A program made the position numbers and the translations under genes. The notes under the pieces are model-generated. The model was not told the DNA's origin. It ran no database searches and saw only the letters and a list, made by a program, of their open reading frames with translations. A stretch of 64,000 nt of DNA from Candidatus Abyssobacteria bacterium SURF_17 (lineage in GTDB: Bacteria; Abyssobacteria; SURF-5), in contig QZKI01000121.1 of assembly GCA_003598055.1 (NCBI GenBank), positions 7,102 to 71,101 on the forward strand, given 5' to 3'. This document shows positions 38,226 to 53,851 of the stretch, piece by piece. Position 1 is the first letter of the stretch. The number at the start of each line of letters is the position of its first letter.

Positions 38226-39995
38226 CTACAGGCCGCGTTCCACATACTGCGTGTGAAGCAGCTTATGCGAGAGATGGCCTAAGGGCTTTCCCAGAAATTG
38301 TTCATAAATCTGGACTATTTCAGGGTTCTCGTGAGACTTCCGCAATTTCTTGCCTTCATCCTCCTTGTAGATGGCTCGTATCCTTGCCATGCGCACCTCA
38401 TTGTCCGTCATCCGCGGCTGGCCTCCGCCTCCGATGCATCCGCCGGGGCACGTCATGATTTCGACGAAATGGTAGCTGCCCTCGCCGGATTTGATACGCT
38501 CAATCACCTTTCTGGCATTCCCCAGGCCGTGAGCGACCGCCACCTTGAGCGTAGCTCCGTCGAGGAACGACCATTCGGGAACTGCACGCGGGATCTCGAT
38601 TGATGCTTCCTTCACACCTTCCAGCCCGCTAATAGGAGCGACGTGGAGGTTCTCGAACGGCAGCGGCGTCCCAGTCACGATCTCATATGCCGTCCTGAGT
38701 GCGGCCTCCATCACGCCTCCCGTGTTGGCGAATATGTCCGCGGCTCCCGACGACATGCCTATCGGCGAGTCCATCTTGTCGTCCGGCAGTGAGACGAAGT
38801 CGATGCCGGATTGCTTAATCATTCGGCCGAGTTCTCGGGTGGTCAAGACAACATCGACATCCCTGACACCGCTGCTGTGCATCTCCGGCCTCTGGGCCTC
38901 AAACTTCTTGGCCGTGCACGGCATGACTGACACCACAAAAATGTCCTTCGGCTCTTTGTTCAACATTTTCGCATAGTAAGTCTTCGCGACCGCGCCAAAC
39001 ATCTGTTGCGGAGACTTGCACGTGGAGATGTTCGGCAGCAGCTCAGGATAGAAGTGTTCTACAAACTTGATCCACCCGGGAGAACAACTCGTAAACTGGG
39101 GAAGAGCAACTTCCTTCTTCTCCACAAGCGCCGCTTTAAGCCGCATCAGAAGCTCGGTCCCTTCCTCTATGATGGTCAGGTCAGCGGTAAAGTTGGTGTC
39201 AAACACGCCGTCAAAGCCCAGCCGCCGCAGCGCCGAGACCATCTTTCCCGTCACAAGCGTTCCGGGCGGATATCCGAAGCATTCTCCCAGCGCAGCCCTG
39301 ATTGCCGGGGCTGTCTGCACGATTACGTGCTTGCTCGGATCATCAAGCGCAGCCCATGCTTCGCTAATCTGGTCCTTCTCGCTTATGGCGCCCACCGGAC
39401 ATACTGCGGCGCATTGGCCGCATTGGACGCAGACCACTTCGGCAAGCTCATTCGTGAATGCAGGGCCGATGACGGATTCAAACCCGCGGTATTGGGGAAA
39501 CAGGGCTCCCACGCCTTGGACTTGGCCGCAGACGGTTACGCAACGACGGCACTTGATGCATTTGGCCGAATCGCGCATAAGCGCCGGCGTGCTCGCATCA
39601 ACTACCCGAGCACTTTTTTCGCCGGGATAGGTGATGTCGCTTATGCCGAGCTCACGGGCAAGAGCCTGCAATTCACAGTCATCGTTCCGGTTGCAGGTTT
39701 GGCAGTCGCCGTTATGCTCTGATAGGAGAAGCTCTACCACGGTGCGCCTTGCTTCGCGCACCCGGGCCGTATTCGTGAACACCTTCATGCCGTCCAAGAC
39801 CGGCGTCACACAGGAAGCCACGAGAACGCGTGAGCCCTGCACTTCTACGAGACACACCCGACATGCGCCTATTGCTTGAATATCTTTCAGGTAGCACAAG
39901 GTCGGCACTCTTACTCCAATCTGGCGGACGGCCTCCAGAATGGTTGTTCCCTCGGGCACCTGCACACTCATACCATCAATGGTTAGTTGAGGCAT
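38226..39995 (-). CDS. hydA: [FeFe]-hydrogenase catalytic subunit HydA (group A, NuoG-like N-terminus)
   Basis: RBS ggaagggg then ATG at 39995. N-terminal 2Fe-2S, a His-ligated 4Fe-4S (HNGDCQTCNRNDDC) and two ferredoxin 4Fe-4S clusters. H-cluster motifs L2 MPCTAKKFE and L3 EIMTCPGGCIGGGGQP. L1 reads TSCSPGW. Confidence 0.9.
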   Translation of the reverse strand: MPQLTIDGMSVQVPEGTTILEAVRQIGVRVPTLCYLKDIQAIGACRVCLVEVQGSRVLVASCVTPVLDGMKVFTNTARVREARRTVVELLLSEHNGDCQTCNRNDDCELQALARELGISDITYPGEKSARVVDASTPALMRDSAKCIKCRRCVTVCGQVQGVGALFPQYRGFESVIGPAFTNELAEVVCVQCGQCAAVCPVGAISEKDQISEAWAALDDPSKHVIVQTAPAIRAALGECFGYPPGTLVTGKMVSALRRLGFDGVFDTNFTADLTIIEEGTELLMRLKAALVEKKEVALPQFTSCSPGWIKFVEHFYPELLPNISTCKSPQQMFGAVAKTYYAKMLNKEPKDIFVVSVMPCTAKKFEAQRPEMHSSGVRDVDVVLTTRELGRMIKQSGIDFVSLPDDKMDSPIGMSSGAADIFANTGGVMEAALRTAYEIVTGTPLPFENLHVAPISGLEGVKEASIEIPRAVPEWSFLDGATLKVAVAHGLGNARKVIERIKSGEGSYHFVEIMTCPGGCIGGGGQPRMTDNEVRMARIRAIYKEDEGKKLRKSHENPEIVQIYEQFLGKPLGHLSHKLLHTQYVERGL

Positions 39996-40014
39996 TCCAT
40001 TCCACCCCTTCCGC

Positions 40015-43000
40015 TCAGCGCTCGTCTCGATAGTCGCAGCGCAGACACCGTTTCGCTTCCCTCTGGGCCACATTCTGCCGCCATGGCGTTTCCACCTCGA
40101 GGAAATTACTCCTCCTTTTTGCGACCGGAATCATCTGGGCCTTTGCACGCGGATATTGCACAGGGTCGGCCTCCGGGTCAAAGAAGGTGTCGATTGTTTG
40201 TTCCTTCCTCCAGAACGCCTCTCCCTCGCCCTCGAGAAACTCGTGAATACCCACAGCGGCCTTCTCGCCGCCTCCTATCGCGCTTGTTACCGTAGCGGGG
40301 CCGGTTGCCGCATCGCCTCCCGCGAAAACCCATTCAACGGATGTCTGTCCGGTCACCGGGTTCATGTGAAGCACATTTCCGGCAAATTTGAGGCTGATTC
40401 CGTCGCATATCTCCTTGCCATCCAGCGCTTGCCCGATGGCCGCGATTACCTGGTCGGCATTCACCACAAAGTCGCTGTCCTCACACCGCTCCGGACGCCG
40501 CCTCCCCGAGCGGTCATAGTCTCCTAGCTTCATGCGACAGCATTTCACGCCGACGACATGGCCGTTACTGGAGAGAATCTCGACAGGTGCAACAAGGGTT
40601 CTGATACGAAGCCCCTCTCGTTCTGCTTCTTCAATCTCCTCTTCATATGCAGGCATCTCAGCCCGCGTTCGGCGATACAGGATCGTCACCGCCCCGGCGC
40701 CCAGCCGGAGGGCTGTTCGTGCAGCATCAACTGCCGCGTTTCCGCCGCCGATGACGACCACTTCCTTGCCGACCGATACCGAGCCATTTAGGTTGTGGTC
40801 ATGCAAGAAGCGCATTGCGTCGCTCACGCCCTCGACCTTCTCGCCGGGAATGCCTAGGTCCAGACCTCGCGGAGTGCCTACGCCCACAAAGACCGCCTTG
40901 TAGCCATCCGCTTTCAAGCTCTTCAAGGTGAAATCCCTTCCAAGCTTCATTCCGGTTTCTATATCTACGCCGAGGTGCTCGATCATTCTAACTTCGCGCG
41001 TTATTACGTCTCGAGGCAGACGATAAGCCGGGATTCCCCAGCGAAGCATGCCTCCCGGCTGGCTCTCGGCCTCGAAGACCTTCGGACGATACCCCAGCCG
41101 TGCGAGGAAATATGCGCAGGAAAGCCCGGCAGGCCCGGCTCCGATTATTGCGACCTTGTGTCGTGCGTTTCGTTCGCTTTCCCGTATCTCCGGAAGCTGT
41201 ACCGTCACTTCCTGTTCAACCATGAACCGTTTGAGGCCGCGGATTGAAACCGACTCGTCCACGGTCGAGCGTCGGCATTTGCTCTCGCACGGATGGAAGC
41301 ATACTCGCGCGCATACGGACGCAAACGGGTTTCGATTTCGGTGAAGCTTCAACGCCTCGGCGTACCGGCCTTCGGAAATCAAGGCCACATATCCGGGTAC
41401 ATCCACGCCTGCGGGGCACGCATTCTGACATGGCGCCCGCACGAGCGACTCACAGACGCCCGCGGGACAATGTTTTTCCCTGATATGTGCGTTATACTCG
41501 TCGCGGAAATGCCTGATTGTGGACAACACCGGGTTCGGTCCGGTCTGCCCCAACCCGCAGAGCGCGGTATCTTTTATCTTGTTGCCCAGGTCGATAAGCT
41601 TTTCGACGTCGCCCTCTTGCCCGTTGCCCTCGCAAATCCGGTTCACAATCTCCAGCATCCGCTTCGTGCCCACCCGACACGGAGGGCACTTGCCACATGA
41701 TTCGTCCTGAATGAAGTCAAGGAAATAGCGAGCCATGTCCACCATGCACGTATCCTCATCCATGACGATGAGGCCGCCCGACCCCATGATCGCTCCCAAA
41801 TCGGTGAGCGATTCATAATCGACGGGCACATTGAGATGTTCCTTTGGAATGCACCCACCGGAAGGTCCGCCCATCTGCGCGGCCTTGAACTTTTTGCCGC
41901 CAGGAATTCCTCCGCCAACCTCATATATAATCCTGCCCAGCGACGAGCCAATGGGGACTTCAACCAGGCCGGTGTTGTTGACCGTTCCCGCAAGCGCAAA
42001 CACCTTGGTCCCTTTGCTCTTCTCGGTGCCGAACGAAGCGTACCATTCCGCTCCTTTCATGATGATCGCGGGTATGTTGGCATAGGTCTCCACATTGTTG
42101 AGCAGGCTCGGCTTTCCCCATAATCCTTTTTGGGCAGGGAATGGGGGCCGCGGCCTCGGCTCGCCTCGATTCCCTTCGATGGAGGTCATGAGCGCGGTTT
42201 CCTCGCCACATACGAACGCTCCCGACCCCATCCGAATCTCCAAATCGAAATCAAAGCCGGTCCCCATGATGTTCTTCCCGATGAGCCCGTATTGCCTGGC
42301 TTGATCGAGCGCCTTGCCCAGCCTCTCGACGGCAAGCGGATATTCGGCTCTCACGTACACATAGCCTTGGCTCGATCCGATTGCATACGCCGCTATTGCC
42401 ATGGCCTCGATGATGCTGTGGGGGTCGCCTTCGAGCACGCTGCGGTCCATAAACGCCCCCGGGTCACCCTCGTCACCGTTGCAGATTACGTATTTAACAT
42501 CTCCTTTGGACTGGCGGGTCACGCGCCATTTCCTGCCGGTCGGAAATCCTGCTCCCCCTCTGCCGCGCAGACCGGACTTCTCCACGACGTCGATGACCTG
42601 TTCAGGCGTCATCCCGGTTAGCACCTTGGCGAGTGCCTGATAGCCGTCTCGCGCGATGTATTCGTCAATCCGCAGCGGGTCTATGATTCCGCAATTGCGA
42701 AGAACGATCTTCTCCTGCTCGCGGAAGAAGCTGATGTCCTGAAGCCTGGCGACTCCTTGAGCTGTTGCAGGAGCCCTATGCACCAGCCGCTCAACTACGC
42801 GACCCTTCAGGAAATGCTCTTCAACGATGACCGCCGCGTCTTCCGGTTTCAGATTTTGGTAAAACACGCCGTCCGGGTAAACCACTGCCACCGGACCGAC
42901 CGCGCATGGTCCCAGGCATCCCGTTTCAATGATTCTTACTTCGCCCGTGAGACCATGCTTGCGTAAGGGATCCTGCATCGCCGCACCGACCTCGAGCGAG

Positions 43001-43059
43001 CCCGAGGCAACGCATCCAGCGCCAGCGCACAGAAGGAAGTGAGTCCTGGCGTTCTCCAT
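40015..43059 (-). CDS. hydB: Hydrogenase NAD(P)-linked flavoprotein: HydB (NuoF-like, FMN/NADH, 4Fe-4S) fused to a C-terminal GltD/NfnB-like FAD/NADPH oxidoreductase domain
   Basis: RBS aaggagg then ATG at 43059. NuoF motifs GRGGAGFPTGRKW, CNGDEGDPGAFMDR and ESCGKCPPCRVG. Then two 4Fe-4S Cys clusters, FAD motif VAIIGAGPAGLSCAYFL and NADPH motif VVVIGGGNAAVDAART. 1014 aa. Confidence 0.85.
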   Translation of the reverse strand: MENARTHFLLCAGAGCVASGSLEVGAAMQDPLRKHGLTGEVRIIETGCLGPCAVGPVAVVYPDGVFYQNLKPEDAAVIVEEHFLKGRVVERLVHRAPATAQGVARLQDISFFREQEKIVLRNCGIIDPLRIDEYIARDGYQALAKVLTGMTPEQVIDVVEKSGLRGRGGAGFPTGRKWRVTRQSKGDVKYVICNGDEGDPGAFMDRSVLEGDPHSIIEAMAIAAYAIGSSQGYVYVRAEYPLAVERLGKALDQARQYGLIGKNIMGTGFDFDLEIRMGSGAFVCGEETALMTSIEGNRGEPRPRPPFPAQKGLWGKPSLLNNVETYANIPAIIMKGAEWYASFGTEKSKGTKVFALAGTVNNTGLVEVPIGSSLGRIIYEVGGGIPGGKKFKAAQMGGPSGGCIPKEHLNVPVDYESLTDLGAIMGSGGLIVMDEDTCMVDMARYFLDFIQDESCGKCPPCRVGTKRMLEIVNRICEGNGQEGDVEKLIDLGNKIKDTALCGLGQTGPNPVLSTIRHFRDEYNAHIREKHCPAGVCESLVRAPCQNACPAGVDVPGYVALISEGRYAEALKLHRNRNPFASVCARVCFHPCESKCRRSTVDESVSIRGLKRFMVEQEVTVQLPEIRESERNARHKVAIIGAGPAGLSCAYFLARLGYRPKVFEAESQPGGMLRWGIPAYRLPRDVITREVRMIEHLGVDIETGMKLGRDFTLKSLKADGYKAVFVGVGTPRGLDLGIPGEKVEGVSDAMRFLHDHNLNGSVSVGKEVVVIGGGNAAVDAARTALRLGAGAVTILYRRTRAEMPAYEEEIEEAEREGLRIRTLVAPVEILSSNGHVVGVKCCRMKLGDYDRSGRRRPERCEDSDFVVNADQVIAAIGQALDGKEICDGISLKFAGNVLHMNPVTGQTSVEWVFAGGDAATGPATVTSAIGGGEKAAVGIHEFLEGEGEAFWRKEQTIDTFFDPEADPVQYPRAKAQMIPVAKRRSNFLEVETPWRQNVAQREAKRCLRCDYRDER

Positions 43060-43064
43060 CGGTC

Positions 43065-43454
43065 TCAAGCCTCCTTAGATGATTGACTGCTTACCATGTA
43101 CTCAACGAGTGGCTGATTCTCCAGCATGTGCCTGGTCACAATCTCATGCACCTTCGACCGGTCAAGCCTCGCATAACAGAATTCCGTGCCTGATGCGTCG
43201 GTCAAAGTGAACATGGGCTCCTGGTCGCAAAGCCCCATGCATCCTGATAATCGGACAGTCACGCTTTCAACCCCTGCCAGGCGCAATTCCTCAATCACTT
43301 GCGTCAGGATGTCGCGCGCTCCGGCGGCGATTCCGCACGTTCCCATGTGCACCACGATGCGCATGTCTTTTTCCCCTGTGCGCAGCTCAATGTCGGACTT
43401 GGCTTGGTCACGGAGCGCGTTAAGGTCTTTGACGCTCTTAATTTTCTTCTCCAT
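43065..43454 (-). CDS. Thioredoxin-like [2Fe-2S] ferredoxin (HndB-like hydrogenase subunit)
   Basis: 129 aa with a four-Cys pattern (HMGTCGIAAGA...SGCMGLCDQEP) typical of the 2Fe-2S thioredoxin-like ferredoxin of HndABCD-type hydrogenases. Confidence 0.7.
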   Translation of the reverse strand: MEKKIKSVKDLNALRDQAKSDIELRTGEKDMRIVVHMGTCGIAAGARDILTQVIEELRLAGVESVTVRLSGCMGLCDQEPMFTLTDASGTEFCYARLDRSKVHEIVTRHMLENQPLVEYMVSSQSSKEA

Positions 43455-43456
43455 TT

Positions 43457-43987
43457 CTATGCCCCCTTCTCAGCGACGGCGCCCTGGTTCCTGTACTCAT
43501 CAAGGAGCTCATGGACTTTGAGCGGTTTCACGCGCTGATGCACTTCGTTATCGATGGTAATTGTCGGCGCCAGTCCACACGCCCCGAAACAGCGGGCGAC
43601 CTCCAAGGAAAACATCTTATCGGGCGTCGTCTCGCCCACATCGATGCCCAGGTCTCGTTTTATCGAGTCGAGCACCCGCTTCCCGCCTCGAACGTAGCAC
43701 GCTGTCCCCAAACACGTGCGGATGAGGTGCTTTCCCCTCGGGACGGTGGAGAAAAAGGAATAAAATCCGACAACTCCGGCAACCTCGCTATACGATTTGT
43801 TCAATCCCCGGCTGATGCGCTTGAGGGCCGATTCCGGCAGGTAGCCAAAGATGCCTTGCGCAATCTGAAGGACGGGAATGAGTGCGCCCGGCTTTTCCCG
43901 ATATTCCTGAATCACTTCATCGAGTCTGGCCAGAAGCTCCTGTTCCGACACTTCCTCACAGGCACATCCCAGTTTTTCTGGTGCCAT
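43457..43987 (-). CDS. hydC: NuoE-like [2Fe-2S] subunit (HydC/HndA)
   Basis: CLGTACYVRGG ... CFGACGLAP motifs of the NuoE 24-kDa subunit family. Confidence 0.85.
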   Translation of the reverse strand: MAPEKLGCACEEVSEQELLARLDEVIQEYREKPGALIPVLQIAQGIFGYLPESALKRISRGLNKSYSEVAGVVGFYSFFSTVPRGKHLIRTCLGTACYVRGGKRVLDSIKRDLGIDVGETTPDKMFSLEVARCFGACGLAPTITIDNEVHQRVKPLKVHELLDEYRNQGAVAEKGA

Positions 43988-44019: not shown

Positions 44020-44565
44020 CTACACTGACACTGCAAGCGTTACCATAGCGTTTTTGATCTCTTCCGAAATCAGTCTGGCAACCGCCAGGCCACGGAACTC
44101 ATTGAAGTTCAGCTTGCGTGCCACTTCCGACACACTCACGGCACTTTCACGCCCATCCACCTTCAACTTGCATCGAATGTCTATATCCGGATTCGTGCAT
44201 GCCACCGAAGCAAGCGTTGCGGCCAAGTCTCCCAAAGGACTCCTGTCAATATGGCTCAGCCGCATGGTCACCGTGACTACCAACCCCCCAAGCGGGGATT
44301 TCCCCAGCGTCAAGCTTCCGTTTGCTCGCTCGGCAGCCGCGCGGAAGAGGCTCAAGCCCAATCCCACCCGCTTACCCGATTTGGTGGTATAAAAGGGGTT
44401 CACAGCAACGTTCGGGGATACTTGAAGTCCTCGCCCGTTATCCTCAACGCTGATTTTCAGGAGGTCTTCCGCGTGGTCTTCTTCGACCGTTACCGAGACA
44501 ACTGAGACCCCTGCCCGGATGGAGTTTTCGATAAGGTCAAGAATATGCAGTGACAGCTCACGCAC
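44020..44565 (-). CDS. GHKL/HATPase_c-type ATP-binding regulatory protein (anti-sigma-factor / Ser-kinase-like); start approximate
   Basis: LSLHILDLIENSIRAG ... VEDNGRGL ... GLGLSL motifs. The tracked start overlaps the PHP gene, so a later GTG start is preferred. Confidence 0.65.
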   Translation of the reverse strand: MRELSLHILDLIENSIRAGVSVVSVTVEEDHAEDLLKISVEDNGRGLQVSPNVAVNPFYTTKSGKRVGLGLSLFRAAAERANGSLTLGKSPLGGLVVTVTMRLSHIDRSPLGDLAATLASVACTNPDIDIRCKLKVDGRESAVSVSEVARKLNFNEFRGLAVARLISEEIKNAMVTLAVSV

Positions 44566-45292
44566 AGCAGCACCTTCTTCCACCAATTCCTTTTATCGCC
44601 TGGACAAGCTCATCGAATGTGGGTTCAGCCACTTCGAGTATCGTGGCGCACCTGCCTATCTCGAAGAGAAAATGACTGTCGGAAGAACTGACTACCGACA
44701 GCCCGTGAAAATGCTCACTGCCGAAGGGAGGAACAGCATTGGGTTTCAAGAAAATCTCGACGGCATCAAATCCCACGTCAGGGGGAAACAGGCCAAGCTG
44801 GCTCATAACGCTGAAGGACGGCCTGTTCACATGTGCAGCAATTGCAAGACCGTCATGTCTCTTTATGAGATTCACGGTTTCCGAAAGAGTGAGGGCGGAC
44901 GATGCAGCAAGCATCTTGGATTCAGTTCCCACAACCCGTCCTTTCGCGTCCATCAGGAGTTGCTGGCCGAACCTCTTCGCTCGCTCGCTCAGAGGAGGGA
45001 GATTTGCCCGAACCGTCTCGGCCGCGGAACAGGCTTTCGCAGCATCGGGAAACAGACCAACCACATGAATATCCTCGACCGTCGTTACTTCCATTCCCGC
45101 AACCGCAGCGATAGCTGTTCCCGCCGCCTCCTGCATGGATGCAGTGTTTCCTGCGGCGTTATGGTCGCAAATCGCAATCATGTGAAGCCCCTTCCGAACA
45201 GCCTCCTCCACAATCGCAGGAGGGCTCATCTCCTCCATCGCGCACGGAGACAGTGCGGAATGAATATGCAAGTCTGCCTTGAACCGTTTCAC
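44558..45292 (-). CDS. PHP-domain (polymerase/histidinol-phosphatase-like) metal-dependent phosphoesterase
   Basis: Begins with DLHIHSALSPC ... ICDHN, the PHP His/Asp metal motifs. Confidence 0.8.
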   Translation of the reverse strand: MKRFKADLHIHSALSPCAMEEMSPPAIVEEAVRKGLHMIAICDHNAAGNTASMQEAAGTAIAAVAGMEVTTVEDIHVVGLFPDAAKACSAAETVRANLPPLSERAKRFGQQLLMDAKGRVVGTESKMLAASSALTLSETVNLIKRHDGLAIAAHVNRPSFSVMSQLGLFPPDVGFDAVEIFLKPNAVPPFGSEHFHGLSVVSSSDSHFLFEIGRCATILEVAEPTFDELVQAIKGIGGRRCCCA

Positions 45293-45642
45293 GCATGCTT
45301 CCCTCTCAGCCCCAAGGCGTAGAGCTTGCCCACGGTATTGAACGTTGACTCCTCGGTCGCATAGAGCACGAGGCCCTCTTCAATCGCTTTTTGCCTGACC
45401 GATTCTTCAGGCACCATGCCTCCGGCAAAAATCACCGCTTTGAGCTCAGCATGAACACACACCGCAATGACGTTGAGATGCACCTGAATGGTGACCAGCA
45501 GCCCTCCTTGTGGGGCATTGGCCAGCACGTCGCTCAGCAGGTCGCACGAATGACCGCTCCAGACTTCCGCCTGTTGGTCGGCTTCCTTCTCCGGCGTGAG
45601 ATTTCTCAGACTTAGTTGTTGCGCTATGTCCGCGAGTTTCAT
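45289..45642 (-). CDS. DRTGG-domain protein
   Basis: About 117 aa of DRTGG-like sequence (GLLVTIQVHLNVIAVCV...IFAGGM). Translationally coupled on both sides. Confidence 0.65.
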   Translation of the reverse strand: MKLADIAQQLSLRNLTPEKEADQQAEVWSGHSCDLLSDVLANAPQGGLLVTIQVHLNVIAVCVHAELKAVIFAGGMVPEESVRQKAIEEGLVLYATEESTFNTVGKLYALGLRGKHA

Positions 45643-47216
45643 GGCGCTCTCTCCGCATCGTCAATGACATACGGACATGCCTTCTTCCGTGCTCTGCCCA
45701 TCACCACATCCTCGGCAAGCGCGTCGCAGGTCGGCGCGCCGCACAGACCGCAATCTTTGCCCGGAAGGCTTTTGGCGAGTTCCTCCAACTCAGACAGCTT
45801 TTCAATGGCCTGTGAGACATCGGCGCTGAGCCCCATGCCCGTTCGTGGCTTAAGCGGGGCCGTCCGGCGAATTGCTTTTGCTGCAATCGCATGTTCAACT
45901 TGGGTCCGGCTCCACCGATACCTGGCGACGAAGGGCTGCTCCGTGAGAAGCGGCGAGCCATAACACCCGCACTCGCATGCGTACAATTCCAAAATCCGCA
46001 CGTCGCGCAGCCGGCCGTTCTCCAGCTTCTCGAGCACGTCAATAACGTGCCTCATGCCACATGCTTCGAGGATGCCGTTGAGTGCGCTTCCGTTTGCCGG
46101 CGGAATGATGCGAACTTGCTGCAGCCGTTCCTCAACTCCTTCCTCCATGACAACCCGTTGAACCACGTGGCGAAATGTGGCGGGCATCATAACTTCGACA
46201 TTCCTCGAGAAAGAACCGGCGGTGAGTGCGGTAAGTTGACAAGGGCAACAAGCAACGAAGACAACCTTCTGTCCGTTGAACTGGTTCCTGGCTGCTTCAA
46301 AAGGGGATAAGAAGGGAGCTATGACTTCAATGAGAGACTGAAACCGCAATCGTATGAGATTCACAATGGCCGGACACACGGGCGAAATCACGGGCAATTG
46401 CCTTGCTTCTTCGGCAGCATACCTGATGACGGCGCTTCGCAACGCGTTCTCCCACGCTTCGGTGAGGTAGACCTCCCTGAAAGCGAGTTTCCGTATTCCT
46501 GCAAGCACGCGGCTGGGATATATTGCCGCACTGAATTGCGCCAGAAAATGGGGTGGGACTAACAACACCTTCTCTTCAAAAGGCTGAGCCTCACTCATGG
46601 CGCTCGCTGTCGTGAGCGCACCACTTTTGCATACTCCAATACATGCCGCGCAGTCGATGCAGAGTTCTCTCAGTATCTGTGGCTTGCCGTCGTAGACTCT
46701 CAGCGCCTTCGGTGCGCAAACCCTCACACAGTAGAGACATTGGCGACAATTCGTGGAAATCGCTCGAATCGAGTTGTGCCCTGTCTCCGAAGACTCCTGG
46801 CTCCTGAAGCAAACCGTATACAGCACCCTGGTTCCCTGGCCTACGGTGGAGTCTATCTCGAACACATCGGAGTTCTTCTTCATATTCGGCAGGCCCAGAC
46901 CGGCTCCATAGCCCAACTGCCTCGCCGCAGGCGAAGCCGTGGAGAAGCCTTCCTGCATTGCCTGCTCAATGTCGGGAATGCCGGGACCCTCGTCCCTCAC
47001 TTCAACCTCTATCTCCGTGGAATCAATGATCGCGCGCATGCTGCCCCTGTATGCGTGTATCACGACATTCATCTCGGCCTCGAAGGCGGCGATGATGGCA
47101 CGGCGCATATCGGCTGGGTCCATATTGATTTTTTTCAGAAGCCGCTTCAGCGCACTCGTTGCCGCGCCTGCCTTTTTGAAATCACCGCCCTCGATCATGC
47201 TAAGCGTGACTCTCAT
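45639..47216 (-). CDS. HydS-like putative sensory [FeFe]-hydrogenase paralogue with N-terminal GHKL Ser-kinase domain, 2x[4Fe-4S] ferredoxin domain, degenerate H-cluster domain and C-terminal Cys cluster
   Basis: N-terminal anti-sigma Ser-kinase pattern (NVVIHAYRG...EVRDEGPGIP...GYGAGLGL). Ferredoxin motifs CRQCLYCVRVCAP and CIDCAACIGVC. H-cluster-like L1 ISPVCPAIV, L2 VACCPCQ and L3 ELYACECGCYGSPL. C-terminal CGLCGAPTC-x16-C. Confidence 0.75.
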   Translation of the reverse strand: MRVTLSMIEGGDFKKAGAATSALKRLLKKINMDPADMRRAIIAAFEAEMNVVIHAYRGSMRAIIDSTEIEVEVRDEGPGIPDIEQAMQEGFSTASPAARQLGYGAGLGLPNMKKNSDVFEIDSTVGQGTRVLYTVCFRSQESSETGHNSIRAISTNCRQCLYCVRVCAPKALRVYDGKPQILRELCIDCAACIGVCKSGALTTASAMSEAQPFEEKVLLVPPHFLAQFSAAIYPSRVLAGIRKLAFREVYLTEAWENALRSAVIRYAAEEARQLPVISPVCPAIVNLIRLRFQSLIEVIAPFLSPFEAARNQFNGQKVVFVACCPCQLTALTAGSFSRNVEVMMPATFRHVVQRVVMEEGVEERLQQVRIIPPANGSALNGILEACGMRHVIDVLEKLENGRLRDVRILELYACECGCYGSPLLTEQPFVARYRWSRTQVEHAIAAKAIRRTAPLKPRTGMGLSADVSQAIEKLSELEELAKSLPGKDCGLCGAPTCDALAEDVVMGRARKKACPYVIDDAERAP

Positions 47217-47568
47217 GCGTGATCCGCGCTCCCCGGCCCAATAACCGGCTCAAACGGTCCGCCGTTTCCGTCAGTCCGACAGATGAGACCATGAGAATCG
47301 TTCCGTTTTCCGTGGATGCGTTCAGCAGCTCTTGCTCCGGCACGTAGCCATTGAGAAGGCAAATCGCCGGCACTTCCAGAAGTCCTGCTACGCGAAAGAT
47401 GTGAGGATTGAGTATGTTGCTTACGACCAGCGTCCTCTCGCAGCACCGTTCGGCGAGAAGTTCGCTAATCTTGTCGTCAGCGTAGAATCGCTCAATCTCT
47501 GCGCTGAGTGGGCCTGAATAGGTCAGAATTTTGGCCCCGATTTTTTTGGCTAGTTCGTAGAGTCTCAC
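47200..47568 (-). CDS. DRTGG-like domain protein; GTG start inferred downstream of the sigma54 promoter
   Basis: The tracked ORF starts at ATG 47652, but a sigma54 promoter overlaps that position. An in-frame GTG at 47568 gives a 122-aa DRTGG-sized protein. Confidence 0.5.
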   Translation of the reverse strand: MRLYELAKKIGAKILTYSGPLSAEIERFYADDKISELLAERCCERTLVVSNILNPHIFRVAGLLEVPAICLLNGYVPEQELLNASTENGTILMVSSVGLTETADRLSRLLGRGARITHESHA

Positions 47569-47662
47569 ACTCGCGCTCGCACGGTTGGAGTCATTGTCGA
47601 GGGCCCCCGTCCGCTGTCCGCAAATGCAATCCCCATGCCGACGACGTTTCATGAGGTGGGCT

Positions 47663-47806: not shown

Positions 47807-49261
47807 TCATGGGCGCGAATCACCCATGGGAGATATATGCTCGTTTCCTCGGGCCTTGAACTGCTCTTTTATCAAACCATATTTCTTCATCCTTTCGTAA
47901 AGGGCTCTTCTCGATATTCCCAAAGCTCCGCTCGTGGCGCCTACCTCTCCGTGGTGCTCCCGGAGCGCGCTTTCAATCACCTGTCTTTCGGTCAGTTCCA
48001 TTGCATCGTGCAGCCTCCCCGGTGTGGCGGGCAACGATAGAAGGCGCTGGTCAACGAAGCTTTCATCCATCTCGAATGAACCGGTCACACCGCGGGAAGA
48101 GGTAATCACCATTCTCTCAATGGCGTTTTTCAACTCTCGAATGTTACCCGGCCACGAGTGCGTCATCATCTTGCCGAATGTCTCCTCAGGGAATCTGGGC
48201 ACCGGGATTCCGCTTCGGTTTGCGGCAGCTTTTGAGAAGTGGGACGCCAGGAGGGGAATATCCTCACGCCGCTCGCGAAGCGGCGGGATAACAATAGTGA
48301 GCACATTGATCCGGTGATAGAAATCTTCCCTGATTCGTCCTTGCTGCACGAGTTCTCTGAGGTTGACGTTCGTAGTTGCAACAACACGAACGTCCACGCT
48401 CCGCAATTCATCCTGACCGAGCGGCTGCACGAGTCCGTCTTCGATAACCCGAAGCAAATGCACTTGCGCTCGTTCGGAAAGGCTCTCGATTTCATCGAGC
48501 AGAAGCGTTCCGCCAGATGCCATGACAATCTTGCCGTCCCTCTTAAAGGTAGCTCCCGTAAATGCGCCGCGCGCATGGCCGAACAATTCGCTCTCAAGCA
48601 GGGTCTCTGACAAGGCTCCTGCATTTACCGGTACGAATGGGCCGTTCACACGCGCGCTCAGCGAGTGGATAGCGCGGGCCGCAAGTTCCTTTCCCACACC
48701 CGTTTCGCCCAATATCAACACCGGTGCGTCGGACCTCGCATATACCCTGATTTGTTCGTACACATCTTGCATGACCCTGCTTCTACCCACCATTCCGCAG
48801 AACTGGTCTTCGTCAAGGCACATCATGTCAAGCCGTCTGCGGAGCTCCTCGCTCTCATGGCGGAACTTTGTCAGTTCCACGGCGCGCCTGACACTCGCAA
48901 GGAGCACATCTTCCTCAAACGGTTTTTCGAGGAAATCATACGCGCCCGATTTCAAACATCGAACCGCCATCGGGATATCCCCGTGGCCGGTGAGCATGAT
49001 CACAGGCACCTGATAATTTCGTTTCTTTACCTCTGCCAAAAATTGCTCCCCGTCCATCCATGGCATCTTCACGTCCGCAATTACGCAGTGAGCGTCACAA
49101 AGCGGCACCCACTCAAGCGCCGCTATCGCCGATGGGAACTCCTCGACTCCGAACCCCCGCAAGCGAAGCATCTGCCCAATAGACTCCCGCGCTGCATCGT
49201 CATCATCTATGATGGCAATGTTTACTCGTACGGATGGCGTGACATCAGTCATTTTCCTCAA
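47807..49261 (-). CDS. Sigma54-dependent Fis-family response regulator (REC + AAA+ + HTH; NtrC family)
   Basis: Receiver domain, Walker A GETGVGKE, the GAFTGA motif (RGAFTGA) and a C-terminal Fis-type HTH. Confidence 0.9.
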   Translation of the reverse strand: MRKMTDVTPSVRVNIAIIDDDDAARESIGQMLRLRGFGVEEFPSAIAALEWVPLCDAHCVIADVKMPWMDGEQFLAEVKKRNYQVPVIMLTGHGDIPMAVRCLKSGAYDFLEKPFEEDVLLASVRRAVELTKFRHESEELRRRLDMMCLDEDQFCGMVGRSRVMQDVYEQIRVYARSDAPVLILGETGVGKELAARAIHSLSARVNGPFVPVNAGALSETLLESELFGHARGAFTGATFKRDGKIVMASGGTLLLDEIESLSERAQVHLLRVIEDGLVQPLGQDELRSVDVRVVATTNVNLRELVQQGRIREDFYHRINVLTIVIPPLRERREDIPLLASHFSKAAANRSGIPVPRFPEETFGKMMTHSWPGNIRELKNAIERMVITSSRGVTGSFEMDESFVDQRLLSLPATPGRLHDAMELTERQVIESALREHHGEVGATSGALGISRRALYERMKKYGLIKEQFKARGNEHISPMGDSRP

Positions 49262-50753
49262 CCTCGCCGATACCCACAGGATTCCGTGACGGCAGCATTA
49301 CTTTAAAAATGGAACCTACTCCAGGCGCGCCAATGGCCTCAATTTCACCCATGTGCTCCTTGATTATCGTTAGGGAGATGGACAGGCCTAGGCCGGTTCC
49401 GTCACCCGGCTGCTTGGTCGTGTAGAAAGGGGTAAATATCTTCTTTCCCTCCTCAGACGTAAAGCCTGTTCCTGTGTCCGTGATCTCGGCCACCACCGGC
49501 CTGCTGCCTGTGTTGAGGTACGTTTTGATTCCCAAGCGGCGCTCTGGCGTGTCTGCCATAGCCTGACTTGCATTCGCGAGAATATTGAGGAACACTTGCT
49601 CAAGCCTGATTTTGTCACCCATCACGAGTGGAAGATTATCTCCGAGCTCAAGCGCCACTTTGATTCCGTGCAGCCTGAATTGAGGAGCCATGAAGTCAAC
49701 GCTTTCTCGCAAAATACTGTTGATATCCAACAACGTGAACTGCCGGTCTGACTTGCGCGTGAGATGTCGAATCTGGTTTATGATTCTCGATGCGCGGTCA
49801 ACCTGGTCCGCGATACGGTGAAGGTTATCACGGATGTCCTCCGGAGTTCCCGCGTTCGTCTCAATCATATAACAGGTGTTCTTGGCAAAGTTCTTGACAG
49901 CCGTCAACGGCTGGTTGATTTCGTGTGCAATGGAAGCAGCCATTTCCCCCAGCTCTGCAAGCCGATGCGCATGTACCAGTTGCTCTTCCTGTCTGCGTGA
50001 AAGCTCGAGGAGTTCCTGGCGTTTTTCCTCGGCCTCCTTTCTATCGGTAATATCGTACACATTCACGAGGACAGCCGGCTCCCCCTCATACGACGTCATG
50101 GAACTGCCAAGATCAACCCAGATCTTTTCCCCATCCTTGCTCACAAACCGGCATTCATAGTGCGCATCGGATGCGGCCCGGTCCTTGCGTTCCGAAATCA
50201 GCTCGCCGCGCCTATTCCTGTCGGGCTCATGAATCAGCCTTGCGAAGGAGCTCTCCAACAATTCGTGGGGCTCATATCCAAGCATTTCACAGAATCGTCT
50301 GTTCACGAAGACGATCTTGCCCTGCCGATGGACGAAGATGCCCGCGAGTGATTTGTCGATGAGCAACTTATACTTTTCCTCTGACGCTCTGACCGCTCCT
50401 TGCGCTTTCATGACTCGCTCGCTCAGAAATCCTATGCACGAGGCCACCGTAAGAAAAAAGAGGGTGCGTGCAGCATCACTCCAGAGAGCGCCTTCTCCGG
50501 TGCCGGACAAGCGAAAGCCGAACGTCATCCCCGCCAGGAGCAGTGCAATCCCGATGCTCTTTTGTCCCCACCAAAGACCAGCCAACACAATGGGAATATA
50601 GGCAAAATGGGTATACACGATGGGAGTATGAAGGACAATGCGAAAATAGACTCCCAATCCGCCATACGCGACTAACAGCAAGACCATAACGCCTATGCGC
50701 ATGACTTCGCGACGACGTGTCTTGATGTCCTCATTCATAGTCTTCAACAGCAA
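49245..50753 (-). CDS. Membrane-anchored PAS-domain sensor histidine kinase
   Basis: Four N-terminal TM segments, a PAS region, H-box SIAHEINQPL and HATPase_c motifs DTGTGF / GTGLGLS. Overlaps the regulator gene start. Confidence 0.85.
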   Translation of the reverse strand: MLLKTMNEDIKTRRREVMRIGVMVLLLVAYGGLGVYFRIVLHTPIVYTHFAYIPIVLAGLWWGQKSIGIALLLAGMTFGFRLSGTGEGALWSDAARTLFFLTVASCIGFLSERVMKAQGAVRASEEKYKLLIDKSLAGIFVHRQGKIVFVNRRFCEMLGYEPHELLESSFARLIHEPDRNRRGELISERKDRAASDAHYECRFVSKDGEKIWVDLGSSMTSYEGEPAVLVNVYDITDRKEAEEKRQELLELSRRQEEQLVHAHRLAELGEMAASIAHEINQPLTAVKNFAKNTCYMIETNAGTPEDIRDNLHRIADQVDRASRIINQIRHLTRKSDRQFTLLDINSILRESVDFMAPQFRLHGIKVALELGDNLPLVMGDKIRLEQVFLNILANASQAMADTPERRLGIKTYLNTGSRPVVAEITDTGTGFTSEEGKKIFTPFYTTKQPGDGTGLGLSISLTIIKEHMGEIEAIGAPGVGSIFKVMLPSRNPVGIGEVEEND

Positions 50754-51412: not shown

Positions 51413-51697
51413 ATGAAAACAATCAACTGGGATACGGAGAAAAGCCTGGCGCTCAAGGAATCAAGGGGAATCTGCTTCGAGGATGCGGTCTTCCATATGG
51501 AAAAAGGCGACATAGTGGATGACTATGAGCATCCCAACCAACAGAAATACGCCGGTCAGCGCATAATGGTCGTCGGCATTAACAATTATGCATATCTCGT
51601 CCCGTATGTCGAGACTGAGGATGAAGTGTTCCTGAAGACGATTATCCCCAGCAGGAAGGCAACGGAAAAATACTTTGGAGAAAAACATGAAAACTAG
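51413..51697 (+). CDS. brnT: BrnT-family ribonuclease toxin (type II TA; formerly DUF497)
   Basis: INWDTEKSLALKESRGICFEDAVFHM...IMVVGINNYAYLV...IIPSRKATEKY matches the BrnT W-D..K...N..KH.V.FEEA ... IISARKA pattern. Confidence 0.8.
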   Translation: MKTINWDTEKSLALKESRGICFEDAVFHMEKGDIVDDYEHPNQQKYAGQRIMVVGINNYAYLVPYVETEDEVFLKTIIPSRKATEKYFGEKHEN

Positions 51698-51965
51698 ACT
51701 GACAAAAGAGGAAAAGGAAATCCTTGAGAGTTTTGAGAAGGGCGAATGGGTTCCCACAAAGAACCTTCCGCGAAGAAAGAAGGAATTAATGCGCTATGCG
51801 CGGAATACCTTGAAAAAGGACAAGAGACTCAATATCCGGATTTCCGAACGAGACCTACTCGAACTGCAGAGAATGGCAGTCAGGGAAGGCCTGCCATACC
51901 AGACGTTTGTCTCCAGCATACTTCACAAGTTCGTCAACGGCACATTGGTCGAGGAAAAGGAATAA
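51687..51965 (+). CDS. brnA: BrnA antitoxin (RHH/CopG-like)
   Basis: NIRISERDLLELQRMAVREGLPYQTFVSSILHKFV matches the BrnA C-terminal RHH region. Overlaps the brnT stop. Confidence 0.75.
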   Translation: MKTRLTKEEKEILESFEKGEWVPTKNLPRRKKELMRYARNTLKKDKRLNIRISERDLLELQRMAVREGLPYQTFVSSILHKFVNGTLVEEKE

Positions 51966-52170
51966 CGGACTGACAATCTGCCCCTCACGAAGCAGGCACC
52001 TCACCCCATCTGGTTACACTCCAGATTCATTATGATATTGTGCGCTCCGGCAGCTCCCGCCCGAAGTGCAGATTCTATGACAAACTCTGCACATTTTTCC
52101 GACGTAATATGAGTGCGATTTTCTGATAGAAGCTACACTTATTACTGCCCGTGGAAGAAAAGCTGTTCTT

Positions 52171-52200
52171 GACAGGGAAAACATGCGGGTATACTATGTT
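52171..52200 (+). promoter_or_regulatory. Possible sigma70 promoter TTGACA-15-TATACT upstream of the second TA pair
   Basis: cTTGACAgggaaaacatgcgggTATACT. The spacer is short (15 nt). Confidence 0.35.
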
Positions 52201-52270
52201 TTTAGGCACACAGACCGACTCAGCCGCCATGGATGCGTCGTATGGGGAATGTGAGAAGAGGGGGCGACGA

Positions 52271-52486
52271 ATGAGCAAGGGTATAACTTTTGATGAAGTG
52301 CTCGACATGATTGACTCTTTGCCTGCTGAACAAAGAGAGTCACTCATTGAAATCGTGAAGAGTCGTCTGATAGAAGAGCGTAGGGACAGACTCGCAAAGA
52401 GCATTAAGAAGGCGAGACGCGAGTACAAGCACGGCAAAGCGAGTCGAGGAACGGTCGACGACCTTATGAACGAGCTTGCCAAATGA
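52271..52486 (+). CDS. Type II antitoxin (small helical addiction-module component)
   Basis: RBS gagaagaggggg then ATG at 52271. 71 aa, charged and helical. Its stop overlaps the toxin start by 4 nt. Confidence 0.55.
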   Translation: MSKGITFDEVLDMIDSLPAEQRESLIEIVKSRLIEERRDRLAKSIKKARREYKHGKASRGTVDDLMNELAK

Positions 52487-52764
52487 GAACGCTCATATGG
52501 ACGAATACGTTTCTCCGGGCGCTTAAGAGAGTAGTGCGGAGACACCCAGAGAAGCGGCGGGATATCGAGGTCACTCTGAGATTCCTCCTGGCTAATCCAT
52601 TCGCTCCTCAGTTGGAGACGCATAAGCTTAAGGGCAAGCTATCTGGTTCGTGGGCATGCAGCGTGGGGCGCGACTTGCGAATAATCTTTGACTTTGTGAA
52701 AGATGAAAAAGGAAAGGAAGGCATCCTTTTACTGGAAATCGGCACGCATGAAGAGGTTTACTGA
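52483..52764 (+). CDS. RelE/ParE-superfamily toxin (RelE/StbE- or YafQ-like mRNA interferase)
   Basis: C-terminal LKGKLSGSWACSVGRDLRIIFDFVKDE...ILLLEIGTHEEVY matches the RelE/StbE L.G....W.LRVGDYRIIY..D....I.IL.IGHRK.VY pattern. Confidence 0.8.
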   Translation: MRTLIWTNTFLRALKRVVRRHPEKRRDIEVTLRFLLANPFAPQLETHKLKGKLSGSWACSVGRDLRIIFDFVKDEKGKEGILLLEIGTHEEVY

Positions 52765-52816
52765 TGGTGAGAGATGATGTCTCCTTCATTTTTTGCTGAC
52801 AGACATTAGTACCCCA

Positions 52817-53851
52817 ATGACCAAATCTCAGTTCATCTGTATTTATTGCCTCAAGAGAGAACCAGAATTAATACCTTCCGAGGCGCACATTATCCCCGCT
52901 GCAATCGGAGGAACCCGGTACTCCAAAAAAATCGTTTGCAAGAATTGTAATGGTCTGACAAATCAAATGTTCGAAAATGCAGTCATTGAAAGATTTGCCT
53001 TCTTCCGGAGCATCTGGGGTATAAAGAGTCGAAAGAAGGACAGAGTGCCTCATGTTTCCACAAAACTGAAATTTGCTGACATCGAGGGGAAAGTTTCTAT
53101 AGATCAAAATGGTGAATTGACTGGCCCAATCGTGATGACGAATCTGGATACGAACGGGATTAAGGAATATCGAGTTATTGGTTTTGGAGAAAAAGGCAAG
53201 AAACAAGCCGAAATTAAACGTCAACAAATCTCCGCGAAACATCCCAATGTCGCTTGGGAAGAAGTTCATCATGCTGAGACTCCATTGATTCAGTTCGTAA
53301 TCGAGACTCCAGAAGTTGATGATATTATTTTGCGCAGATTGGCCGCTAAGGTTGCTTTCGAAAGTTGGGCCGAAAAAAGGGCATCATTGGTTGCCAGCGA
53401 TAGTCAGTATGCTCAGATTCGGGACTTTATTCTGACGGGCAACCATGATTTCTGTTCCGGTGTTTTGCCGGCACCTCCACCCCTCACCGGGCTTAGCGAT
53501 TTGCCTGTAGGCATCCATGCGGGCGGAATTGTACACAATGTGAGCTCCCCCATATTGGGAGCCTTTATCGTCTTCTTCGGTCTTTTCCACTATTGGGTCT
53601 TGATATCAACGAGCTATCAATCACTGCAATCTGATGATGAGTTCTGGATTGAGAATCCCCAGAAGGGATATTTCCCTGATTCCAAACTAAGATGCCAAGC
53701 CAGGCCCATCCTGATAGATTGGGGTCAGTATGTGCGGGCTTGGCGTAACGACCCACAGGGGATTCTAAAGAAAGCAGTCACCTATAATGAGGCAAAGTTC
53801 CAGGAAGCTTGGAGAGAAGCTTTGCAAGACGGGCGTGTGCTAAAACCCTGA
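52817..53851 (+). CDS. HNH-endonuclease-domain protein with a roughly 290-aa C-terminal domain of unknown function
   Basis: N-terminal CIYCLKREPELIPSEAHIIPAAIGG...VCKNCN is an HNH/His-Me finger (CxxC ... H ... N ... CxxC). Start is ATG 52817 (TTG 52793 also possible) and no RBS is seen. Confidence 0.6.
   Translation: MTKSQFICIYCLKREPELIPSEAHIIPAAIGGTRYSKKIVCKNCNGLTNQMFENAVIERFAFFRSIWGIKSRKKDRVPHVSTKLKFADIEGKVSIDQNGELTGPIVMTNLDTNGIKEYRVIGFGEKGKKQAEIKRQQISAKHPNVAWEEVHHAETPLIQFVIETPEVDDIILRRLAAKVAFESWAEKRASLVASDSQYAQIRDFILTGNHDFCSGVLPAPPPLTGLSDLPVGIHAGGIVHNVSSPILGAFIVFFGLFHYWVLISTSYQSLQSDDEFWIENPQKGYFPDSKLRCQARPILIDWGQYVRAWRNDPQGILKKAVTYNEAKFQEAWREALQDGRVLKP

Follow-up and report, generated by a model that had tools for sequence, protein, structure and literature searches.

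The gene described here lies in a 64,000-nucleotide stretch of DNA (the window) from Candidatus Abyssobacteria bacterium SURF_17 (contig QZKI01000121.1, positions 7,102 to 71,101). It occupies positions 45639-47216 of the minus strand, begins with ATG and encodes a protein of 525 amino acids (RJP65917.1 of Ca. Abyssubacteria SURF_17), which the database labels "hypothetical protein"; its start differs between the public gene calls, giving 525 amino acids (NCBI) or 519 (JGI). Four parts make up the protein: a GHKL domain of SpoIIAB/RsbW type, a ferredoxin domain with 2x[4Fe-4S], an H-domain of [FeFe] hydrogenases in shortened form and, at the C-terminus, a Cx2Cx4Cx16C cluster. They are arranged as follows.

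45639..47216, minus strand: the whole fusion gene, a SpoIIAB-like kinase joined to a group-D-like hydrogenase-like protein, 525 amino acids (RJP65917.1)
46824..47168, minus strand: N-terminal GHKL domain of SpoIIAB/RsbW type, residues 17-131 (Pfam HATPase_c_2; SpoIIAB matches in sequence and fold)
46611..46760, minus strand: 2x[4Fe-4S] ferredoxin domain, residues 153-202 (Pfam Fer4 dicluster models; conserved cysteines)
45897..46565, minus strand: shortened H-domain-like region, residues 218 to about 440 (partial Fe_hyd_lg_C; hhalign; Foldseek; residue table and spacing)
45669..45767, minus strand: C-terminal Cx2Cx4Cx16C domain of [4Fe-4S] type, residues 484-516 (Pfam PF04060)

The same domain order had been proposed in a first-pass annotation made from the sequence alone, and the Pfam hits bear it out. 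HATPase_c_2 (residues 17-131, E 7.3e-10) scored 39.4 bits against a cutoff of 27.4, Fe_hyd_lg_C (residues 218-326, E 4.7e-10) scored 40 bits against 22.1 while covering only profile positions 5-130 of 245, and the FeS family PF04060 (residues 484-516, E 8.5e-12) scored 45 bits against 23; the Fer4 dicluster models at residues 153-202, of which Fer4_9 was the best (E 3.1e-05), each remained under their own cutoffs. The cysteines of the ferredoxin domain are C157/C160/C163/C167 and C186/C189/C192/C196, and among 120 fused sequences the second position of the first motif is Cys in 105, Ser in 12, Ala in 2 and Gly in 1. The C-terminal cluster has the form C489-x2-C492-x4-C497-x16-C514 and is followed by a conserved AED motif; its cysteine motif is kept in 119 of the 120 sequences, and the PF04060-type domain that holds it matches RnfB and CoFeSP. 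The chain ends 11 residues past C514, and Pfam found no PAS match in it. The AlphaFold model of the whole chain has a predicted local distance difference test score (pLDDT) of 90.2 and a predicted template-modelling score (pTM) of 0.88, and the latter suggests a defined packing of the modelled kinase against the Fe-S domains.

Homologues of this protein number more than 1000 in the protein database, and all of the best 120 listed have the fused architecture. At 50% identity, 247 clusters match at E<=1e-30, and about 44 clusters carry the fused architecture over their full length, a recurrence well beyond chance. A scan with one genome per species located relatives in at least 595 genomes, and the phyla concerned are Planctomycetota, Spirochaetota, Actinomycetota, Atribacterota, Bacillota, Bacteroidota, Chloroflexota, Synergistota, Cloacimonadota and Thermodesulfobacteriota. 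The locus comparisons were made on the 80 best-scoring of at least 595 loci. Eight of these 80 (L001-L006, L009 and L013, including Brocadiia, Spirochaetota, Thermoleophilia and Actinomycetes) show the fused arrangement of the window. The remaining 72 are split: a SpoIIAB-like gene of about 140 amino acids is followed by a short spacer and then by a gene for a protein of 401-481 amino acids. The second gene encodes the 2x[4Fe-4S] domain, the H-domain and the C-terminal cluster, which is the layout of the putative sensory hydrogenases called M2e or group D.

One tblastn segment crossed a stop codon in all 72 split loci, so that kinase and M2e gene seem to share a frame. This pattern is a ranking artefact, because the set was restricted to the 80 best-scoring loci and scores are highest for long single segments. 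Selenocysteine insertion or programmed read-through at the stop between the two genes was rejected: the stops are TAA in 31, TAG in 21 and TGA in 20 loci, often with several consecutively, and the ribosome-binding sites and ATG starts that follow the kinase stop codons also argue against read-through.

In a neighbour-joining tree rooted on HydA, the fused proteins are monophyletic (41/41) and are sister to the split M2e proteins (84/84) instead of being nested inside them; this is a simple distance tree with limited sampling and without the HydDB reference set. The mean identity is 46% within the fused group, 42% within the split group and 30% between the two, and it falls to 21% towards group C and to 20% towards HydA. 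Because fused proteins share 46% identity on average, the fused clade is clearly conserved and, as judged from the sequences, constrained, with its H-like domain under clear purifying selection. The window protein is best placed in a sister clade of group D whose members carry the fused kinase. The open-access papers searched gave no account of the fused form or of its degenerate site.

The H-domain homology is genuine and the domain is shortened. When the profile of a 34-sequence family was compared with the HydA of the window, hhalign gave 96.8% (E 2.5e-10) over the ferredoxin domain and the first half of the H-domain, and a Foldseek search with the model matched solved [FeFe] hydrogenases over about 385 columns (CbA5H 8zqd, E 6e-12). 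Together with the Pfam score of 40 bits against 22.1, these results identify a real H-domain as opposed to a generic Fer4-type domain. Since hhalign against one HydA reached only the first motif (L1), the second half was aligned in a multi-family MAFFT alignment with the M2e and HydS proteins of the loci. The motifs quoted in the first-pass annotation, including the spacing of the C-terminal cysteines, are present in the translation: L1 is VISPVCPAIVN, L2 is VACCPCQ (VACCPCQLT) and L3 is ELYACECGCYGSPL. The group A catalytic signature (L1 TSCCPxW, L2 MPCxxKxxE, L3 ExMxCxxGCxxGGGQP) is found in none of the three. The putative ligands of the [4Fe-4S]H cubane are C281 in L1, C324 in L2, and C414 and C418 in L3, which are equivalent to C300, C355, C499 and C503 of CpI.

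The residues around the metal site were compared in an alignment of 128 fused, 84 split M2e, 3 group C HydS and 3 HydA sequences, whose group C members are the HydS proteins of L011, L041 and L066. The columns were mapped to CpI residues through the motifs of the window HydA and are labelled with what we take to be the CpI residue numbers.

C300, C355, C499 and C503 (cubane ligands): fused 128, 128, 128 and 126 of 128; split M2e 84, 84, 84 and 84 of 84
K358: fused Lys 0/128 (Gln 109, His 9, Glu 4); split M2e Lys 73/84; HydA Lys 3/3
F417 equivalent: fused, a gap in 106/128; split M2e Trp 79/84
G421, G422 and V423 equivalents: fused, no conserved residue; split M2e Gly 69, Gly 81 and Glu 77 of 84
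P354: fused, variable; split M2e Pro 82/84
M353: fused Ala/Val; split M2e Thr/Ser
S298: fused Pro 127/128; split M2e Ser/Thr

In the window protein, the K358 equivalent is Q327 and the C299 position is occupied by Val. The pocket loop W..GGE of group D, which corresponds to FxxTGGVME in group A (CpI F417-V423), is absent from the fused clade, and this region has the lowest confidence in the model (residues 374-378). The spacing of the motifs is reduced as well: L1 and L2 are 43 residues apart in the fused proteins versus 55 in split M2e, and L2 and L3 are 88 apart versus 102 in split M2e and 144 in HydA. These differences amount to two H-domain deletions of about 12 and about 14 residues, so that the domain is about 26 residues shorter overall.

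The lysine missing from the fused proteins (K358 in CpI, K228 in CrHydA1) is "extremely well conserved", contacts the distal CN and is needed for insertion of the [2Fe] subcluster; its variants in CrHydA1 prevent assembly of the H-cluster (PMC9516953). The first-pass annotation had proposed that the cysteines for a [4Fe-4S] cluster are retained and the residues around the 2Fe subcluster lost. The counts uphold this, with each ligand cysteine kept in 126-128 of 128 fused sequences and the lysine in 0/128 fused against 73/84 split. In the alignment, the residues around the [2Fe] subcluster that would hold it in place are lost throughout the clade, and the cubane ligands are retained. It is probable that the fused clade itself lacks a bound H-cluster, and we infer a sensing role instead of catalysis, as had also been suggested earlier.

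A rival reading is that the domain still senses H2, through an H-cluster, perhaps with an altered second sphere, that would be inserted by HydEFG, and that H2 binding changes the protein and switches the fused kinase, as has been suggested for HydS of groups C and D. This reading agrees with the conservation of all four ligating cysteines, including the equivalent of the bridging C503, with the clear purifying selection on the H-like domain that the 46% identity among fused proteins implies, and with the fact that the closest characterised relative, TamHydS, binds an H-cluster (PMC8163306). A HydG maturase is also encoded 8 kb away, but its presence is not discriminating because the neighbouring HydA needs HydG anyway. 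However, the lysine that contacts the distal cyanide, whose variants block H-cluster assembly (PMC9516953), is absent in 128/128 fused sequences, the W..GGE loop is deleted, P354 is lost and the H-domain is shortened at the two places described above (by about 12 and about 14 residues). In view of these changes, we consider H2 sensing by the fused clade improbable.

The N-terminal domain has the complete motif set of a GHKL kinase: an N-box with E46/E48/N50/H54, a G1 box with D75-x-G77-x-G79 and a G2 box with G102-x-G104-x-G106-x-G108. Among 120 sequences E46, E48, N50 and the G1 and G2 residues are invariant and H54 is nearly so (>=90%), and the kinase motifs are kept in 112-118 of 120 fused sequences and in 70-72 of 72 split kinases. 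The NCBIfam model spIIAB matched the domain with E 2.9e-15 and 56 bits, far under its equivalog cutoff of 135; a sequence search matched SpoIIAB of the PDB (E 2.6e-7); and Foldseek aligned the modelled domain with SpoIIAB 1til at a target-normalised TM-score of 0.85 and a root-mean-square deviation of 2.1, with the N-box, G1 and G2 in register with SpoIIAB residues 42-132. The domain is thus assigned as a Ser-kinase domain of SpoIIAB/RsbW type, with kinase activity predicted from its motifs.

In the first-pass annotation, this domain was seen as a kinase input that takes the place of a PAS domain. A GHKL domain is indeed present and a PAS domain is lacking; its role as input, on the other hand, is not borne out. 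Because the same domain is encoded by its own gene of about 140 amino acids in 72 of the 80 best loci, it is a normally separate neighbouring kinase gene that became fused and not a replacement input domain, and it is hence more likely the output or partner.

The genes around the fusion gene, all on the minus strand, are listed below from the upstream side to the downstream side.

49245-50753, minus strand: PAS histidine kinase (Pfam)
47807-49261, minus strand: sigma-54 activator response regulator (Pfam)
47200-47652, minus strand: divergent DRTGG-like protein, listed as an open reading frame of 150 amino acids (hhalign to the family of the 117-residue DRTGG protein 84.5%, aligned from residue 30)
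45289-45642, minus strand: DRTGG-fold protein, 117 amino acids (Pfam DRTGG E 2.9e-4; fold match 2ioj)
44558-45292, minus strand: PHP-family metal-dependent phosphoesterase, 244 amino acids (Pfam PHP and PHP_C)
44020-44586, minus strand: stand-alone HATPase_c protein, 188 amino acids, inside the hydrogenase operon (Pfam E 5.4e-14)
43457-43987, minus strand: HydC/NuoE-like protein
43065-43454, minus strand: small 2Fe-2S protein
40015-43068, minus strand: HydB/NuoF fused to a GltD-like domain
38226-40073, minus strand: group A6 HydA
37788-38192, minus strand: receiver protein
34440-37781, minus strand: histidine kinase fused to HydG

The two DRTGG proteins, the PHP phosphoesterase and the stand-alone HATPase protein are thus placed as the first-pass annotation had described them. 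The hydrogenase genes at 38226-43987 on the minus strand (HydC, 2Fe-2S protein, HydB and HydA) presumably encode the regulated enzyme, a bifurcating HydABC. When the proteins of the window operon were searched by tblastn against the 80 loci, several of which lie on contigs that end early, hits were obtained for DRTGG in 73, PHP in 71, the second HATPase in 58, the NuoE-like protein in 55, the 2Fe-2S protein in 49, HydA in 41 and HydB in 40. The order of the module is maintained across phyla, with an optional DRTGG gene, the kinase and M2e parts, DRTGG and PHP in succession, and this block is either co-directional with or divergent from a NuoE-HATPase-Fdx-HydB-HydA block. The upstream DRTGG-like gene, recognised by a tblastn match to the 150-residue or the 117-residue protein, is present in many loci. 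The earlier comparison of the module with HydS/Hfs-type cassettes was therefore correct in that it is a regulatory cassette of a bifurcating HydABC; the nearest relatives of its sensor, however, are group D proteins (about 30% identity) and not the PAS-bearing HydS/HfsB (about 21%).

The tight operon linkage with the enzyme and the combination of an ATPase with Fe-S domains could also be read as those of an accessory factor of HydABC, that is, an ATP-driven repair factor, reductive reactivator or assembly chaperone that feeds electrons via its clusters and is not a regulator; the PF04060 domain is common to electron-transfer proteins such as RnfB and CoFeSP. SpoIIAB-type GHKL domains, however, are signalling kinases and not electron-transfer ATPases, the HydABC structures of A. 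woodii (7q4v) and T. kivui (8a6t) were matched only through their HydA1 chains, and the DRTGG and PHP neighbours would be left unexplained. Such a role appears highly improbable.

Transcription of the operon is probably controlled by the pair of PAS kinase and sigma-54 activator, which is also found upstream in the fused loci L002, L003 and L013. A sigma-54-type -24/-12 element, CGGCATGGGGATTGCA, with 2 mismatches, lies at 47625-47640 on the minus strand. It comes just after the gene of the sigma-54 activator and precedes the probable GTG start of the DRTGG-like gene by about 57 bases (47569-47624); as a sigma-54 promoter it is only a hint.

Several features of the hydrogenase genes stand apart from the sensor. 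The L1 motif of the window HydA is FTSCSPGW, compared with TSCCPGW in CpI, and a plain alignment places Ser where CpI has its [4Fe-4S]H ligand C300. Of 45 module-adjacent HydA genes with a recognisable L1, 36 have TSCSPGW, which is also the motif of the solved A. woodii HydA1 (7q4v), and T. kivui HydA1 has TSCCPSW. The HydB/NuoF-like subunit at 40015-43068 (minus strand) has 1017 amino acids, and its GltD-like part is an NAD(P)H/FAD domain composed of Fer4_20 and Pyr_redox_2. A long hydB of about 3 kb is present in 4 of 4 fused-sensor loci with a full-length hydB (L001, L002, L005 and L009), and the hydB match in the split-sensor loci is about 1.6 kb. This suggests a non-canonical hydrogenase, possibly NADP-linked, that may co-vary with the degenerate sensor. 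The protein encoded at 34440-37781 (minus strand), of 1113 amino acids, joins a membrane sensor kinase (PilS-like transmembrane part, GAF, HisKA and HATPase_c) to a complete HydG, in which residues 655-1112 match the radical-SAM H-cluster maturase model TIGR03955 with 409 bits (cutoff 312). The kinase-HydG fusion is real, because it is shared by at least 33 protein clusters of about 1100 amino acids with 54-63% identity; the kinase also has unfused homologues of about 635 amino acids. It seems unusual for a maturase to be tethered to a sensor kinase in a gene that lies directly downstream of those for HydA and a receiver protein.

Further away, at 51413-53851 on the plus strand, there is an islet of lower guanine-plus-cytosine content (0.47-0.50 versus 0.54-0.58 in the flanks), with two pairs that resemble toxin-antitoxin systems. 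One pair has a BrnT-like protein (E 8.7e-7, below the cutoff) and a CopG/NikA-like partner, and the other has an unassigned small open reading frame and a YafQ/ParE-type toxin (36.5 bits, cutoff 30). The islet also encodes a protein of 352 amino acids with an HNH endonuclease domain.

Among the conserved neighbours, the DRTGG proteins are candidate partners of the kinase. The model of the 117-residue protein (pLDDT 91.4) matched in Foldseek the DRTGG domains of AF1212 (2ioj) and of a CBS-pyrophosphatase (3l2b) and the N-terminal domain of HPrK, and a STAS fold was not matched by this modelled small neighbour. It is better conserved than the sensor, with 59-92% identity among the matches listed. 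A DLLS motif at the start of a helix (D34, L35, L36, S37) and the residues T51 and N57 are conserved in fused and split loci alike, and DLLS and T51 are at least 90% conserved in the DRTGG copies of both. The upstream paralogue in split loci keeps the motif D-[LM]-[LM]-S-D-V-L. In the window, the protein listed at 47200-47652 had no Pfam match; because its similarity to DRTGG begins at residue 30 and its homologues have about 117 amino acids, its true start is probably an internal GTG near 47568, which would give about 122 amino acids. That DRTGG proteins are the kinase substrate, on the Ser of DLLSD, is a guess. The stand-alone HATPase protein of 188 amino acids was rejected as a close paralogue of the fused kinase domain (BLASTP E 0.23).

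The SpoIIAB resemblance also permits a different reading, in which a sigma factor or another regulator would be sequestered by the GHKL domain and set free according to the redox state of the clusters, with a STAS protein encoded elsewhere as phosphoacceptor. In both sequence and fold, the N-terminal domain indeed matches the anti-sigma F factor SpoIIAB best, and JGI labels homologues "anti-sigma regulatory factor (Ser/Thr protein kinase)". However, the small neighbours have the DRTGG fold, and the genes that recur in the 80 loci are DRTGG, PHP and HydABC. Neither a STAS partner nor a sigma factor was found among the conserved neighbours, where the queries were the proteins of the window operon only, so that sigma and STAS genes would be missed, and the rest of the window and of the genome was not scanned. 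An anti-sigma switch of this type is, in our view, quite improbable.

The PHP protein has HxH and DxH metal motifs, recognised by eye, and its best NCBIfam matches are the 3',5'-nucleoside bisphosphate phosphatase and RNase RNM, both far below cutoff and giving no family assignment. These matches are compatible with small-molecule signalling, in which a nucleotide (pAp-like or another phosphoester) would be the substrate that PHP hydrolyses, the DRTGG proteins would be regulators that bind a ligand, and the GHKL domain would be an ATPase or conformational switch and not a kinase; some enzymes under ligand control do contain DRTGG domains, for example CBS-pyrophosphatase (3l2b, 3l31), and so does the N-terminal part of HPrK. 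On the other hand, the GHKL domain keeps the full catalytic motif set of SpoIIAB type, including E46 and N50, the conserved neighbours revealed no nucleotide cyclase or synthase, and PHP matches as weak as these assign no family. We give small-molecule signalling a low probability.

Based on the results presented above, the reading that we favour, tentatively and at somewhat less than an even chance, is that the fused protein belongs to a cytoplasmic redox-gated Ser-kinase module, with [4Fe-4S] clusters as its only input, which tunes the adjacent bifurcating hydrogenase. The H-like domain of the fused clade would bind only a [4Fe-4S] cluster, and the chain of four clusters would report electron pressure, be it reduced ferredoxin or the HydABC redox state, and not H2 binding itself. 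The redox state of the clusters may then alter the activity or the partner binding of the fused kinase, which would phosphorylate a small partner, at best guess the DRTGG proteins at the conserved Ser of the DLLSD motif; the PHP enzyme would strip the phosphate. Finally, the phosphorylation state would tune the activity or expression of the adjacent hydrogenase, with transcription itself probably under the control of the PAS kinase and sigma-54 activator encoded next to it.

Several points weigh against this redox-gated kinase scheme. Known SpoIIAB/RsbW kinases phosphorylate STAS proteins, and DRTGG is a different fold; moreover, we know of no DRTGG protein that has been shown to be phosphorylated. 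Since PHP is weakly similar to nucleotide phosphoesterases, it may not be a protein phosphatase. Across the window, sigma-54 elements that allow as many as 3 mismatches show no enrichment (161 observed versus 175 expected), and the cofactor content of the fused clade is deduced from sequence alone. The characterised relative TamHydS binds an H-cluster despite many substitutions (PMC8163306). Since H2 does not reduce the C-terminal cluster of TamHydS (PMC13104023), even for group D no redox relay via that cluster is established.

A broader version of the redox-gated scheme, which we regard as rather unlikely, would make the fused protein a hydrogenase "fossil" turned redox-gated Ser kinase. It would have no [2Fe] subcluster and four cubanes that act as an electron-pressure gauge, and a hitherto unrecognised, non-STAS type of partner switching, with DRTGG acceptors and a PHP phosphatase, would control bifurcating hydrogenases across many anaerobic phyla. 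All group D HydS proteins would then have this kinase as their long-sought signalling partner. Read as a Rosetta stone, the fusion in the window clade points to the adjacent SpoIIAB-like kinase as the signalling partner of group D HydS.

Putative sensory hydrogenases of group D occur widely, in fermenters, in bacteria of rumen and gut and in biofuel strains, and a 2026 study of TamHydS called finding its interaction partner critical and a key gap (PMC13104023). The fused gene speaks to this gap by proposing a specific partner, the adjacent SpoIIAB-like kinase, and, as one natural chain, it offers a construct for biochemical and structural studies. The loss of the [2Fe] residues with the cubane ligands kept suggests that a natural shift from H2 sensing to redox sensing may have taken place inside one family. 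The conserved DRTGG and PHP partners hint at signalling chemistry so far undescribed, and because control of bifurcating hydrogenases sets the yields of H2, ethanol and acetate in anaerobes, the module is a plausible engineering target.

Compared with known systems, the window protein is closest in sequence to group D (M2e), for example TamHydS of Thermoanaerobacter mathranii, Cthe_0335 and TTE0887, at about 30% identity. Both have the N-terminal 2x[4Fe-4S] domain, the H-domain and the C-terminal Cx2Cx4Cx16C cluster, lack PAS and have the proton-relay Cys299 replaced, and R173 and E502/D503 of the window protein match a conserved contact of TamHydS that links its N-terminal domain to the C-terminal one (PMC13104023). 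Carere et al. described Cthe_0335, TTE0887, Teth39_1463 and others five genes upstream of the catalytic HydA subunit in Firmicutes (PMC3561251). Group D was classed as sensory because its genes are adjacent to kinases and HydABC, and its slot upstream of DRTGG-PHP-HydABC and beside a GHKL ATPase gene is the same as in the window (PMC3561251; PMC8163306). The kinase, however, is a separate gene in group D and is fused in the window clade. Of the group D signature (C299 replaced, M353 Ser/Thr, K358 kept; PMC8163306), the window protein shares only the C299 replacement, with Ala or Val at M353 and Gln at K358, and the W..GGE loop and P354 kept in group D are lost in the fused clade, in which the H-domain is about 26 residues shorter.

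The group C (M2f) proteins (Thermotoga maritima HydS, R. albus HydS and T. saccharolyticum HfsB) are more distant, at about 21% identity. They are likewise hydrogenase-like sensors with an N-terminal 2x[4Fe-4S] domain, a C-terminal four-cysteine cluster and a linkage to bifurcating hydrogenases, but they have a C-terminal PAS domain, keep K358 and mostly keep the CC pair of L1 (TTCCP), unlike the window protein with its N-terminal GHKL domain and no PAS. Group C was proposed to signal to Ser/Thr kinases and phosphatases (PMC5707799), and a link between HydS and a Ser/Thr kinase has long been suspected from gene order (PMC3561251; Zheng et al. as cited in PMC5707799). A PAS-bearing group C HydS of 590-617 amino acids occurs in the same locus as the module in L011 (4192-6045), L041 (542-2326) and L066 (570-2342). 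It lies directly downstream of HydA in L041 and L066, with the motifs TTCCP and GPCxAKK, and about 2.3 kb downstream in L011, with TTHCP and a shifted SCVSAK.

SpoIIAB, RsbW and RsbT (HATPase_c_2) share their fold and their N-box, G1 and G2 motifs with the GHKL domain of the window protein. Unlike them, the window kinase is fused to, or in the split loci paired with, an Fe-S sensor protein, and in the searches with operon proteins only it has neither a STAS substrate nor a sigma factor among its conserved neighbours. A further likeness is offered by the eukaryotic Nar1/NARFL, a non-catalytic homologue of the H-domain that keeps the cubane cysteines and has no [2Fe] subcluster. Nar1/NARFL differs from the fused clade in its lineage, in having no kinase and in serving cytosolic Fe-S assembly, and the analogy may be taken as a lead.

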